Positions 33,901 through 36,900 of a DNA stretch of 64,000 nt are shown here, piece after piece (within the stretch, counting starts at the first letter, position 1; the number at the start of each line of letters is the position of its first letter). Position numbers: made by a program. Source of the DNA: Escherichia coli (GTDB lineage: Bacteria > Pseudomonadota > Gammaproteobacteria > Enterobacterales > Enterobacteriaceae); NCBI RefSeq assembly GCF_965641715.1, contig NZ_OZ282453.1; one strand, 5' to 3'.

Positions 33901-36900
33901 GGGTTTATCAATCTGCATTCTCACCGAACTTACTCGAACGCCCACGTCTGGAAAGCCATCTACAAAAACTCTTGACCGATGCCGTGAAAATGCGTGGGCT
34001 GATTGCGCCCGCCAGCAAAGAAACTCGTATTCCAAAATCGATATATGAAGGTATCCAGACCATTAACCGCAATCTGGTTTGTATGCTGGAGTTGCAAATC
34101 AATGCATACTGGGCCACGCGCCCCAGCCATTTCGTGTTATTGAACGCGCAAAAACTTCGTGATACCCAGCACATGATGCAGCAAATACTGCTGAGCCTTG
34201 TTCATGCGCTGTACGAAGGTAATCCGCAGCCGGTTTTTGCCAATACGGAAAAATTGAACGATGCTGTGGAAGAGCTGCGTCAGTTGCTCAATAACCACCA
34301 TGACCTGAAGGTTGTGGAAACACCAATCTATGGTTATGTGTGGCTGAACATGGAAACGGCGCATCAGCTTGAGTTGCTATCGAATCTGATTTGCCGGGCC
34401 TTGCGCAAATAATTCCTGAACTTCAGAATCATCTTGCTGCTGCTTCGATTCAGCAAGGATAAAGGGTATGATAGTGAAAAGGGATAAAAGCATTGTCATC
34501 TGCGGCAGCTATGAGTAATGTTGGCCCTAACGAATAGCGGTTGCTTAAACGAATCCGACTCTCACATTATCAGGGGTATAAAAATGGAAACTACCAAGCC
34601 TTCATTCCAGGACGTACTGGAATTTGTTCGTCTGTTCCGTCGTAAGAACAAACTGCAACGTGAAATTCAGGACGTTGAGAAAAAGATCCGTGACAACCAG
34701 AAGCGCGTCCTGCTGCTGGACAACCTGAGCGATTACATCAAGCCGGGGATGAGCGTTGAAGCAATCCAGGGCATCATCGCCAGCATGAAAGGTGACTATG
34801 AAGATCGCGTTGACGATTACATTATCAAAAATGCCGAGCTCTCCAAAGAACGCCGCGATATCTCCAAAAAGCTGAAAGCTATGGGCGAAATGAAAAACGG
34901 CGAAGCGAAGTAATTCCTGTTTTATTCAATGAGGGTTGCCCGGCAACCCTCATTGCTCATTGATTCTTTTCTGTGTATCAAAGTCATCATTCCCATCTGA
35001 TAACCTATCGAAATTAGCGACAGACATCTTCTGTATGCAGCAAGGCAAAAAGTTCTGCAACTCCATTGTTATTAACCGCACTGGTTACTAACACGTTGTG
35101 CGCTCCGGCTTCCCGTAACCAACATCTCACCAAAGATATTTGTTCCAAGCTGGCTAAATCTGCTTTGGTTACTACTCCAATGACCGGGCGATTCATTGAC
35201 GAGGTAAAGCCTGGCGAAAAAGGTGACCACGGTGCGTCCGCATTAAGCACCAGCGCGATAATGTCTGCTTCGCAGGCACTGACCAACAATGCACTGTAGA
35301 GGCTGCGGTTTTATCCGTGAGGACTGGCAGCAAGATTTCCAGCCTTTTGACGGTGGGCCTGTGCAATCGTTATCAGATGCGTATAGCGATTATTCAGTGC
35401 TGCTATTGATAGCAGCTGAAAGCGAGATATCCGTACCAGAATGGCTCGCTCATTCTGAGGGAACGACGGTAATTTTGATTGCAGAACACAATGCCCGTTT
35501 ACTGACTGGTCCGGCTGGTGGGGCTGTAGCATTAATCCATTATCTGAATGAAATCTGTCATTCCAGAGAAACCGCTGTCAATGACGCATTTTGTCGGACG
35601 TTAACACGAGGAAGTCTGGCTATTCCACAATGCCATCTTCTTTCGTAATGGATTGAGAATGCTGGATTTTTAATTATATTACGCGCAGTATTAATCGTGT
35701 AAATGTTTTGCGGTCAGCAATGGTGGGGGATCCATTGTTCTGTTCAATGAATACCATCATACAATTGAATCAGGAGTCGGTATGATGATTTTGGTGACGG
35801 GGGGCGCACGGAGCGGGAAGAGTCGCCACGCAGAGGCGCTTATTGGGGACTCTTCACCGGTTCTGTATATCGCCACCTCACAAATCCTTGATGATGAGAT
35901 GGCTGCACGGATAGAACATCATCGGCAAGGCCGTCCGGCGCACTGGCGCACGGTGGAGCGTTGGCAACATCTTGATGAATTAATTCATGCAGACATTAAC
36001 CCGCATGAAGCTGTGTTGCTGGAATGCGTTACCACAATGGTGACTAATCTGTTGTTTGATTATGGCGGCGATAAAGACCCTGATGAATGGGATTATCAGG
36101 CGATGGAACAGGCGATTAATGCTGAGATTCAGTCGTTGATTGCTGCCTGCCAACGTTGCCCCGCAAAGGTTGTATTAGTGACTAACGAAGTGGGAATGGG
36201 GATTGTGCCGGAGAGTCGTCTGGCACGACATTTTCGTGATATTGCCGGGCGGGTAAATCAGCAGCTGGCCGCTGCGGCAAATGAAGTGTGGCTGGTGGTT
36301 TCGGGTATTGGAGTAAAAATCAAATGAGTAAATTATTTTGGGCGATGCTCTCTTTTATTACGCGTCTGCCTGTGCCGCGTCGCTGGTCCCAGGGACTGGA
36401 TTTCGAGCATTATTCTCGCGGTATTATTACTTTTCCTTTAATTGGATTATTGCTTGGCGCGATTAGCGGGCTGGTTTTCATGGTGCTGCAGGCATGGTGT
36501 GGCGTACCACTGGCGGCACTGTTTAGCGTGCTTGTGCTGGCGCTGATGACCGGGGGATTCCACCTGGACGGCCTCGCCGATACCTGTGATGGCGTATTTT
36601 CTGCACGTAGCCGCGATCGCATGTTGGAAATCATGCGTGATAGCCGTTTAGGCACCCACGGCGGTCTGGCATTGATTTTTGTTGTACTGGCAAAGATTCT
36701 GGTGTTAAGCGAGTTGGCTCTGCGTGGCGAACCGATCCTTGCATCGCTGGCGGCAGCATGTGCGGTCAGCCGCGGGACTGCCGCATTATTGATGTATCGT
36801 CATCGTTATGCCCGGGAAGAAGGGCTTGGCAATGTGTTCATTGGCAAAATTGATGGGCGACAAACCTGCGTCACACTCGGCTTGGCCGCTATTTTTGCTG

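Follow-up and report, generated by a model that had tools for sequence, protein, structure and literature searches.

Sequence between tmaR and cobU

In the 64,000-nucleotide stretch of Escherichia coli DNA analyzed here (the window), a gap of 868 bp separates the end of tmaR (yeeX; position 34913) from the start of cobU (35782), in agreement with the roughly 870 bp given in a preliminary description of the locus. What is this interval, and how did it arise? The preliminary description saw in it a decayed pduV-like remnant of a deleted cob-pdu island, with no prophage present. Our comparisons make it very probable that the interval is the non-functional scar of one 17-kb deletion of the pdu operon. 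Strain D8, 99.4% identical to the window, served as the annotated reference for the following features.

34584..34913, plus strand: tmaR (yeeX), the left flank (ORF listing; PGAP annotation of D8 mapped onto the window)
34927..34955, no strand assigned: 13-bp hairpin, 29-nt palindrome, in the 100-bp tmaR-pduV spacer (reverse-orientation self-match)
35014..35310, minus strand: pduV pseudogene fragment, residues 50 to 147 of 147 plus the native stop (PF10662, TIGR02528, comparison with strain D7, D8 annotation)
35158-35169, minus strand: G4 motif TKAD (read from the sequence and its translation)
35289..35648, plus strand: chimeric 119-aa ORF; the first 8 codons are antisense pduV plus junction, and from 35317 it carries codons ~36 to 145 of a cbiG relic (cbiG')
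35308..35316, no strand assigned: deletion junction (three-way alignment of the window, D7 pduV, and D7 cbiG', plus three more strains)
35649..35781, plus strand: spacer 5' of cobU, its last ~30 nt a vestige of the cbiP 3' end together with the cobU ribosome-binding region
35782..36327, plus strand: cobU, the right flank and first gene of the retained cobUST (ORF listing; D8 annotation)

The tmaR gene and the 3' end of pduV converge on a 100-bp spacer that is the same in pdu+ strains, including D7. The palindrome in this spacer folds as RNA at -21.7 kcal/mol (z = -5.4), and no consensus terminator was called when the interval was scanned for promoters and terminators. The scan returned 2 promoter-like sites against 1.6 expected and is uninformative on the cobU promoter; a sigma-70-like site at 35653-35680 matched 10 of 12 positions, but such sites are no commoner than in shuffled sequence. 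The sole Rfam match in the interval was a chance lncRNA (E = 0.44). The first 15.8 kb of the window are the O-antigen cluster.

The pduV fragment is truncated rather than decayed

The minus-strand frame at 35014..35310 comprises 98 codons. It matched the Pfam PduV-EutP family (PF10662) with an E value of 1.5e-23 and 83.6 bits (cut-off, 21) over profile positions 58 to 142 of 143. It also matched TIGR02528 (EutP) with an E value of 1.1e-26 and 93.8 bits over positions 49 to 141 of 142, which is below the full-length cut-off of 138.35. Matches of this strength are far beyond chance, and the similarity to PduV/EutP that had been claimed from the sequence thus holds at the protein level. The retained portion was described as the C-terminal half; it is really two-thirds of the protein (residues 50 to 147 of 147).

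The fragment carries TKAD and so has the [NT]KxD (G4) motif of the EutP/PduV family. Intact E. coli PduV has GPSQCGKT at residues 8 to 15 and DTPG at residues 42 to 45; the G1 P-loop and G3 are both absent from the window fragment, which begins at residue 50. The preliminary description was therefore right about the presence of TKAD and the loss of the P-loop region. The fragment has no start codon and its frame is closed by an in-frame TAA at 35311-35313, so it is not a complete ORF. Neither pduU, which the D7 orthologue does follow, nor any other pdu gene is present in the window. Judged by family and context, the window copy is a pseudogene fragment of a member of the EutP/PduV small GTPase family, and PGAP labels its counterpart in D8 "incomplete; missing N-terminus."

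Against intact D7 pduV, 295 of 299 nucleotides and 95 of 98 amino acids were identical, with no internal stop or frameshift. Because only 4 of 299 nucleotides differ from the intact gene, the fragment is truncated and not, as had been proposed, decayed.

A single deletion joins pduV to a cbiG relic

In the pdu+ E. coli strain D7, the same site has tmaR and the 100-bp spacer, then the genes from an intact pduV to pduA, then pduF and pocR, and finally a cobalamin riboswitch, a 145-aa ORF, and cobUST. Compared with D7, the window lacks one block of 17,253 bp. Homology on the left (99.4%) runs from 34414 to 35312 and ends inside pduV, while homology on the right (98.0%) begins at 35308, inside the 145-aa ORF. 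The missing block runs from pduV codons 1 to 49 through pduA and takes in pduF and pocR, the riboswitch with a 44-aa leader ORF, and 33 cbiG' codons. No match to the cobalamin riboswitch family (RF00174) was found in the window at 34400-35900 at an E value of ≤1, while the D7 riboswitch, used as a positive control, scored 107.8 bits. The relic of a deleted pdu-cob region that had been suspected is thus borne out, as the D7 arrangement minus one 17.25-kb segment.

At the junction, GTTTT (35308-35312) is present in both parental sequences. The next four bases, ATCC (35313-35316), match neither parent and read ATCT or ATCG in other strains, which makes the end-point of the deletion approximate. 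The TAA at 35311-35313, reported earlier as an in-frame stop, is indeed there, but the three-way alignment shows that the junction itself created it and that it is no nonsense mutation. The GTTTT microhomology followed by four ill-matched nucleotides is more suggestive of illegitimate recombination or replication slippage than of a mobile element, with either microhomology alone or filler plus later mutation at the joint.

In our model, the 17,253-bp deletion would have joined pduV codon 49 to cbiG' codon ~34. It would have left a promoterless pduV fragment with neither P-loop nor start codon, from which no GTPase could be made, and a cbiG' fragment deprived of the riboswitch, the leader ORF, and its first 33 codons. 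The identical junction was found in D8, AST240, and S19-651, which points to a single origin of the deletion allele. Strains 1943 and ZF8-1 are also of the window type. Contiguous matching detected the window allele in 205 of 5426 genomes, and a junction probe detected it in 134; among complete E. coli genomes, ~4% share it and 12% keep pdu.

The plus-strand ORF is the end of a cbiG N-terminal relic

The parent of the 119-aa ORF is the 145-aa cbiG N-terminal relic of Escherichia. The 119-aa ORF matched the NCBIfam cobalt-precorrin 5A hydrolase model (NF004463) at positions 40 to 125 of 351 (E = 1.8e-5, 24.1 bits), and the parent matched positions 1 to 125 (E = 2e-20, 73.3 bits). Neither reached the curated cut-off of 546 bits or covered the middle or C-terminal domain. 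Pfam CbiG_N, CbiG_mid, and CbiG_C gave no match to the 119-aa ORF or its 136- to 145-aa relatives even at an E value of ≤10, so that only the enterobacterial NCBIfam CbiG model detects these relics and Pfam is blind to them.

By tblastn on loci around cobU, the parent ORF aligned to the start of cbiG in 50+ Enterobacteriaceae loci. In Salmonella, Citrobacter, Klebsiella, and others, its residues 1 to 112/125 matched this part of the gene, which lies ~8.1 kb upstream of cobU (42 to 47% identity; E values of 1e-15 to 6e-24). The identity of the target was confirmed on Salmonella locus L097, whose product carries CbiG_N, CbiG_mid, and CbiG_C. A word-indexed search of a large protein set with the 145-aa ORF returned only Escherichia and Shigella relatives and no true CbiG.

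CbiP, which the preliminary description had named as a second candidate for the interval, did not account for the ORF. When the cbi regions of Salmonella, Citrobacter, and Klebsiella were compared by tblastx and blastn, only a ~40-nt match spanning the cbiP stop and cobU start was recovered (window 35751-35790 against Salmonella L025:9970-10009, 82.5% over 40 nt; the same was seen with L097). Pfam GATase_3 and CbiA had no match in the interval.

PGAP calls the 119-aa ORF a CDS (WP_001307873.1), and we considered whether it is a real, expressed small CbiG_N-like protein, the similarity to PduV being secondary. The annotation is in favor of this reading, as is the behavior of the parent. The full-length 144/145-aa ORF is open in every Escherichia lineage sampled, against an expectation under neutrality of 4e-3 to 1e-8, and its omega was 0.32 to 0.69; in 4 of 6 pairs, the upper 95% bound stayed under 1. 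These ratios (omega, 0.3 to 0.7) indicate weak purifying selection on the parent in pdu+ Escherichia. The window copy, however, is missing the 33 N-terminal codons that are the best-conserved part of the parent, along with the riboswitch and the coupled 44-aa ORF. The codon at its start falls within antisense pduV and is not conserved, being ATG in the window, GTG in D8, and AGA in AST240; the frame stays open only through the chance presence of an in-frame ATG upstream in that antisense sequence. No Shine-Dalgarno motif is visible 5' of 35289, and about four-fifths of E. coli keep only the last 48 codons. The E value for PduV (1e-23) is also far lower than that for CbiG (1.8e-5). We therefore give an expressed small protein little credence. 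As read from these alignments, the 119-aa ORF is a 5'-truncated cbiG N-terminal relic and no independent gene, and in this truncated form it probably has no activity left.

The pdu+ arrangement is ancestral

The order pduA-pduF-pocR-ORF-cobU(ST) was also found in E. albertii, E. marmotae, another Escherichia clade, E. whittamii, and E69. Because the same order occurs across these other Escherichia, we regard the pdu+ state as ancestral. The ancestral locus would have consisted of tmaR, the oppositely oriented pdu operon (from pduV back to pduA), pduF, pocR, and the riboswitch, followed by a 44-aa cbiA'-'cbiF fusion ORF, the 145-aa cbiG N-terminal relic, and cobUST. Loss of cbi came earlier, in the Escherichia ancestor, through two older deletions. 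The proposal that a Salmonella-like cob-pdu island was deleted here is thus correct for pdu only; other Escherichia loci indicate that cbi had gone before and that the block removed was pdu-pocR-riboswitch.

The opposite polarity, in which the empty window-type state is ancestral and pdu was inserted in pdu+ strains, draws on the description of pdu as repeatedly "acquired" in E. coli ST372 (PMC9997745). Recovery of a pdu+ allele through homologous recombination would also be consistent with the deletion model. An insertion could not have created the missing 5' parts of two genes colinear with their stumps, and the pdu+ arrangement with the same neighbors is common to E. albertii, E. marmotae, E. 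whittamii, and other clades. An inserted pdu operon is, in our judgment, a practically negligible prospect.

The site is unoccupied by an island

In K-12, CP4-44 and IS elements lie exactly between shorter copies of the same pduV and cbiG stumps, and in CFT073 a 47-kb PAI-cobU does so. Both strains keep only the equivalents of the window up to 35196 and from 35477 around their islands. An island of the CP4-44/PAI-cobU type sits between such shorter stumps in most E. coli. In the window, 34914-35781 contains none of the island genes (yeeS/T, cbeA/cbtA, flu, hma, etc.), which K-12 and CFT073 do have, and no integrase, toxin-antitoxin, or IS sequences. An annotated strain colinear with the window is free of phage genes over the corresponding stretch. 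That no prophage occupies this junction, as first described, is therefore correct.

The site had also been called pre-insertion or unoccupied. It is unoccupied, but a pre-insertion state in the sense of a direct K-12 precursor is unsupported, as the flanks are nearer to pdu+ alleles (4/783 and 18/1407 differences) than to K-12 (20 and 33). Could an island have been present once and later been excised or deleted? The locus is a known island hotspot, with PAI-cobU in many ExPEC strains (PMC7545054), and recombination is very frequent in this region, which is near the O-antigen cluster. Island alleles, though, lack window 35197-35476 (116 bp of pduV and 169 bp of cbiG'), which excision could not restore; at the window junction, pduV passes straight into cbiG' and no trace of an island or IS lies between them, and the flank differences again favor the pdu+ allele. 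Even if, in the ancestry of this strain, recombination with an unoccupied allele replaced an occupied one, the window allele itself would never have been occupied. We consider an earlier occupation of this allele barely credible.

Consequences of the deletion

The strain would lack the Pdu microcompartment and 1,2-propanediol use, together with PocR and PduF. Its cobUST genes would lack the B12-riboswitch leader and would presumably depend for transcription on a weak local promoter or on read-through.

In pdu+ Escherichia, the TGA of the 44-aa ORF overlaps the ATG of the 145-aa ORF. It is conceivable, if doubtful, that the riboswitch, the 44-aa ORF, and the 145-aa CbiG N-terminal ORF form a maintained functional unit 5' of cobUST. 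The leader ORFs could be translated spacers that pass riboswitch control on to cobUST through translational coupling or avoidance of Rho polarity; alternatively, the 145-aa ORF could encode a small CbiG_N-derived protein with its own function. If such a unit exists, window-type and K-12-type alleles are natural knock-outs of it. A function for the 119-aa ORF of the window itself is very unlikely.

The scar is a known, already annotated, ordinary polymorphism. PGAP already annotates both relics; in the literature, we found no paper describing the cbiG relic or the pduV/cbiG' junction. The 868-bp gap is now accounted for base by base, which has little significance beyond bookkeeping. The CDS called "hypothetical protein" or "cobalamin biosynthesis protein" here is a chimeric pseudo-ORF, the expected identity of the cob relic is corrected from CbiP to CbiG, and the hotspot has a three-state marker (pdu+, clean deletion, and island-occupied).

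Comparison with known systems

The pdu+ E. coli strains D7, from a dog, and UPEC-774U have the same flanks and orientation as the window, and the parts that D7 shares with it are 99.4% (pduV) and 98% (cbiG'-cobU) identical. In Salmonella enterica (L097), the pdu-pocR-cbiA..cbiP-cobUST regulon has the same order and strands as the Escherichia locus: pdu is divergent from pduF-pocR, after which come the riboswitch and the cob operon. Its riboswitch and leader share 82% identity with those of D7. Unlike Salmonella, all Escherichia sampled have cbiA-cbiP reduced to ~15 codons of cbiA, the N terminus of cbiG, and ~35 nt of the cbiP end. In D7, pduV is the last pdu gene and adjoins tmaR, whereas in Salmonella pduW and pduX reportedly follow it, as Bobik et al. 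are said to have described in 1999. Lawrence and Roth are likewise said to have dealt, in 1995/1996, with the E. coli cob genes and with the loss and reacquisition of cob/pdu. Compared with true CbiG (NF004463), the relic corresponds to the N-terminal ~125 positions of the enterobacterial model; it has no middle or C-terminal domains, only 42 to 47% identity, and no surrounding cbi operon.

The closest annotated counterpart of the pduV fragment is yoeF of K-12, an EutP/PduV-family stub named "EutP/PduV family microcompartment system protein" in RefSeq records. It is the orthologous pduV relic in the same place, 100 bp from tmaR, at the edge of CP4-44. K-12-type alleles keep the last 60 pduV codons (183 nt), abutting island or IS fragments, whereas the window keeps 98 codons that abut the cbiG relic directly. 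CP4-44 and PAI-cobU sit at this site on the chromosome, with the pduV relic on one side and the cbiG relic on the other; neither island is present in the window.

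Truncated pduV in the tmaR-cobU gap

The observation of a pduV-like remnant between tmaR (yeeX) and cobU was confirmed and its interpretation supported, with three corrections: the accompanying cob relic is cbiG and not cbiP, the pduV remnant is truncated and not decayed, and the TAA codon ahead of it is the deletion junction. A 1.9-kb query around this scar matched 5423 of 5426 complete E. coli genomes, with D8, the closest annotated strain, as the best match (99.4%). The gap between the end of tmaR (34913) and the start of cobU (35782) is 868 bp long and has the following features.

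34927-34955, between convergent tmaR and the pduV end: palindrome with a perfect 13-bp stem, CAATGAGGGTTGC CCG GCAACCCTCATTG
35014..35310, minus strand: pduV fragment, a 98-codon open frame with the native stop at its end
35158-35169, minus strand: G4 motif TKAD, in the pduV fragment
35289..35648, plus strand: chimeric 119-aa ORF containing cbiG', an N-terminal cbiG relic

The 35014..35310 frame matched Pfam PduV-EutP (PF10662) at profile positions 58-142 of 143 (E=1.5e-23) and TIGR02528 (E=1.1e-26). This bears out the preliminary description of a C-terminal PduV/EutP-type fragment with TKAD in a gap of ~870 bp, as well as its in-frame TAA at 35311, which occupies 35311-35313 as the next in-frame codon upstream. 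In D7, a pdu+ E. coli reference, an intact 147-aa pduV follows tmaR after the same 100-bp spacer; this gene closes a complete pduA-to-pduV operon that runs on the strand opposite to tmaR. The window fragment corresponds to residues 50-147 of D7 PduV and differs from it at 4 of 299 nucleotides and 3 amino acids; comparison with the intact gene revealed no internal stop or frameshift. Thus, the fragment is truncated rather than decayed. G1 (GPSQCGKT, residues 8-15) and G3 (DTPG, residues 42-45) fall within the missing portion, and no GTPase can be encoded.

The 34927-34955 hairpin (-21.7 kcal/mol, z=-5.4) was conserved in every allele examined and probably serves as a bidirectional terminator, although no T-run adjoins it and a consensus terminator scan made no call there.

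The plus-strand ORF is a relic of cbiG

A Pfam search with the 119-aa ORF returned no match. In D7 and UPEC-774U, a further pdu+ strain, a 145-aa ORF lies between the cobalamin riboswitch and cobU, and the window ORF corresponds to its residues ~34-145. The 145-aa ORF matched the N-terminal 125 positions of the NCBIfam CbiG (cobalt-precorrin-5A hydrolase) model (E=2e-20), while the window copy matched positions 40-125 (E=1.8e-5). The cobU regions of 80 species genomes were searched with the 145-aa ORF by tblastn. In Salmonella, Citrobacter, Klebsiella, and others, a gene located 8.1 kb upstream of cobU aligned with it over the initial 112-125 codons at 42-47% identity. In the Salmonella locus with called genes, this gene is cbiG (CbiG_N, CbiG_mid, and CbiG_C domains). 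An origin from cbiP, the candidate named initially, was rejected, as similarity is confined to ~40 nt at the cbiP stop and cobU start. Taken together with the CbiG model and tblastn matches, this identifies the second relic as cbiG'.

It had been noted that a conserved, expressed 119-aa gene would argue against a relic. However, its ATG (35289-35291) sits in antisense pduV sequence, and at this codon D8 has GTG and strain AST240 has AGA. This implies that the ORF start is accidental.

A single deletion junction

The window aligns with the tmaR-pduV side of D7 up to 35312 and with the cbiG'-cobU side from 35308, and base-by-base alignment showed that both parents share GTTTT (35308-35312). The four bases that follow, ATCC (35313-35316), match neither of them; strains sharing the junction have ATCT or ATCG instead, the fourth base being C, T, or G, and cbiG' homology is clear again from 35317. 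On the minus strand, the TAA is composed of the last two T's of the pduV sequence and the first junction base, and is a breakpoint mark, not a nonsense mutation. The scar consists of one junction that shows short microhomology and is free of mobile-element sequence, from which we infer illegitimate recombination or slippage as the deletion mechanism.

Measured on D7, the deletion spans 17,253 bp and takes in pduV codons 1-49, pduU through pduA, pduF, pocR, the riboswitch, a 44-aa ORF, and cbiG' codons 1-33. The riboswitch scored 107.8 bits against Rfam in D7, and the same search of window positions 34400-35900 found none. We infer that both stumps are non-functional and that Pdu microcompartment metabolism, PocR, and PduF have been lost from the strain. 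Riboswitch control of cobUST would also be lost, with transcription now presumably proceeding via a local promoter or read-through. Between the ORF and cobU, a single sigma-70-like site at 35653-35680 was no better than chance.

Alleles across E. coli and island occupancy

Intact pduV-pduU (pdu+) was present in 644 of the 5426 complete E. coli genomes and the contiguous window-type arrangement, with the 35308 junction, in 205; a 66-nt junction probe matched at least 134 by megablast, a lower bound. About four-fifths of evenly sampled matches carried only a 183-nt pduV stub, labeled yoeF in some RefSeq records. In PGAP annotation, the window-type allele appears as two entries: a partial pseudogene of the "EutP/PduV family" and a protein called "hypothetical" or "cobalamin biosynthesis". 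E. coli is known to vary in pdu carriage, e.g., in ST372 (PMC9997745), a tabulation of STEC lists the contiguous yeeA-(yeeX)-yoeF-cobU order (PMC5359238), and "cobU" is a known island site (reviewed in PMC7545054). The scar is an ordinary deletion at a known hotspot and is already annotated.

A third, shorter allele was seen in BA22372 (L004:3771-3777), in which window positions 35191-35593 are deleted with a 7-bp overlap at the junction, leaving a 177-nt pduV stump and no cbiG' relic. Either the window-type or the K-12-type allele may be its source.

In K-12, CP4-44, IS2, and IS5 lie between the 183-nt pduV stub and a cbiG' stub of 144 nt. In CFT073, these two stubs bracket the 47-kb PAI-CFT073-cobU, and the same yeeS-yeeT-cbeA-cbtA-yeeW module is found at its tmaR-proximal end. 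The window site is unoccupied. Since island-bearing alleles lack window positions 35197-35476, the window allele cannot arise from them by excision. Across the flanks (34414-35196, 783 positions; 35594-37000, 1407 positions), the window differs from D7 at 4/783 and 18/1407 positions and from K-12 at 20/783 and 33/1407. Thus, of the suggested "pre-insertion or unoccupied" state, the latter stands, while direct-precursor status is unsupported, as the flanks are closer to D7 than to K-12. Window-type alleles differ among themselves at 11-22 positions; K-12 and CFT073 share identical relic boundaries, and their flanks differ at just 3/783 and 9/1407. The island-bearing haplotype looks young or recombinationally spread relative to the deletion allele.

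Positions 15831-64000, running from wzzB through the his operon, sbcB, tmaR, cobUST, asn tRNAs, and yeeJ to hprR, are colinear with annotated D8 (97.2%) and contain no phage or island genes. The first 15.8 kb are an O-antigen cluster that differs from that of D8, so the earlier statement that the window lacks phage genes holds. The O-antigen genes (1454-11737 and 13639-14601) encode a flippase, four glycosyltransferases, an acetyltransferase, manC, and manB; the cluster is unrelated to that of D8 (O1 family), and the ugd region is merely 78% identical. Such recombinational mosaicism is usual near gnd and his.

Ancestral state and the older loss of cbi

The order pduA, pduF-pocR, 144-aa ORF, cobU(ST), ldtA was found in E. 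albertii, E. marmotae, and one further Escherichia clade, and E. whittamii and strain E69 likewise have the ORF upstream of cobU. This shared order implies that a pdu+ but cbi-less state is ancestral for the genus. The window allele is derived from that state by deletion; the opposite direction is excluded because insertion cannot create two colinear gene stumps.

All pdu+ Escherichia sampled share the same cob leader (L003:11511-12341 in D7; L091, L006, L008, L086, L088, and L089), consisting of the cobalamin riboswitch, a 44-aa cbiA'-'cbiF fusion ORF, the 144/145-aa CbiG N-terminal ORF, and cobUST. Both relic ORFs are open in 7/7 lineages examined, with the TGA of the first overlapping the ATG of the second. 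Omega for the cbiG' ORF was 0.30-0.69, compared to 0.02-0.20 for its neighbors (pduF, pocR, cobU, cobS, cobT, and ldtA), and the upper 95% bootstrap bound was below 1 in 4 of 6 pairs. With 55 single changes able to create a stop, the neutral chance of none is 4e-3 to 1e-8, depending on tree length. This suggests that weak selection keeps both ORFs translated in pdu+ Escherichia, where they may be translated spacers passing riboswitch control on to cobUST. The parental signal gives no rescue to the truncated cbiG' copy in the window.

E. albertii (L086:6436-7880) keeps the 144-aa ORF and cobS, but cobT is missing altogether, and of cobU only residues 122-181 are detectable. Its cobS has a dS of ~1.0-1.3 to other Escherichia versus 0.2-0.5 among those, suggesting that the allele was replaced or is very divergent. 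E. marmotae pduC is called in two pieces of 212 and 329 aa (L088:315-1968), and D7 pduM is annotated as frameshifted (L003:952-1442), both signs of decay within otherwise complete pdu operons.

The scar had been read as the relic of a deleted cob-pdu island. The deletion did remove pdu, but the loss of cbi predates it, as comparison with Salmonella showed that the cbi genes were removed by two older deletions. About 15 cbiA-like codons (MAASFSSFIAVPTGT; Salmonella MAARHHAFILAGTGS) run into the 44-aa ORF, which ends on the cbiG' start codon; cbiG' homology to cbiG ceases after ~codon 125, and ~35 nt of the cbiP end are all that remains before cobU. Compared to Salmonella, E. coli D7 has kept the riboswitch, leader, and first cbiA codons at 82% identity.
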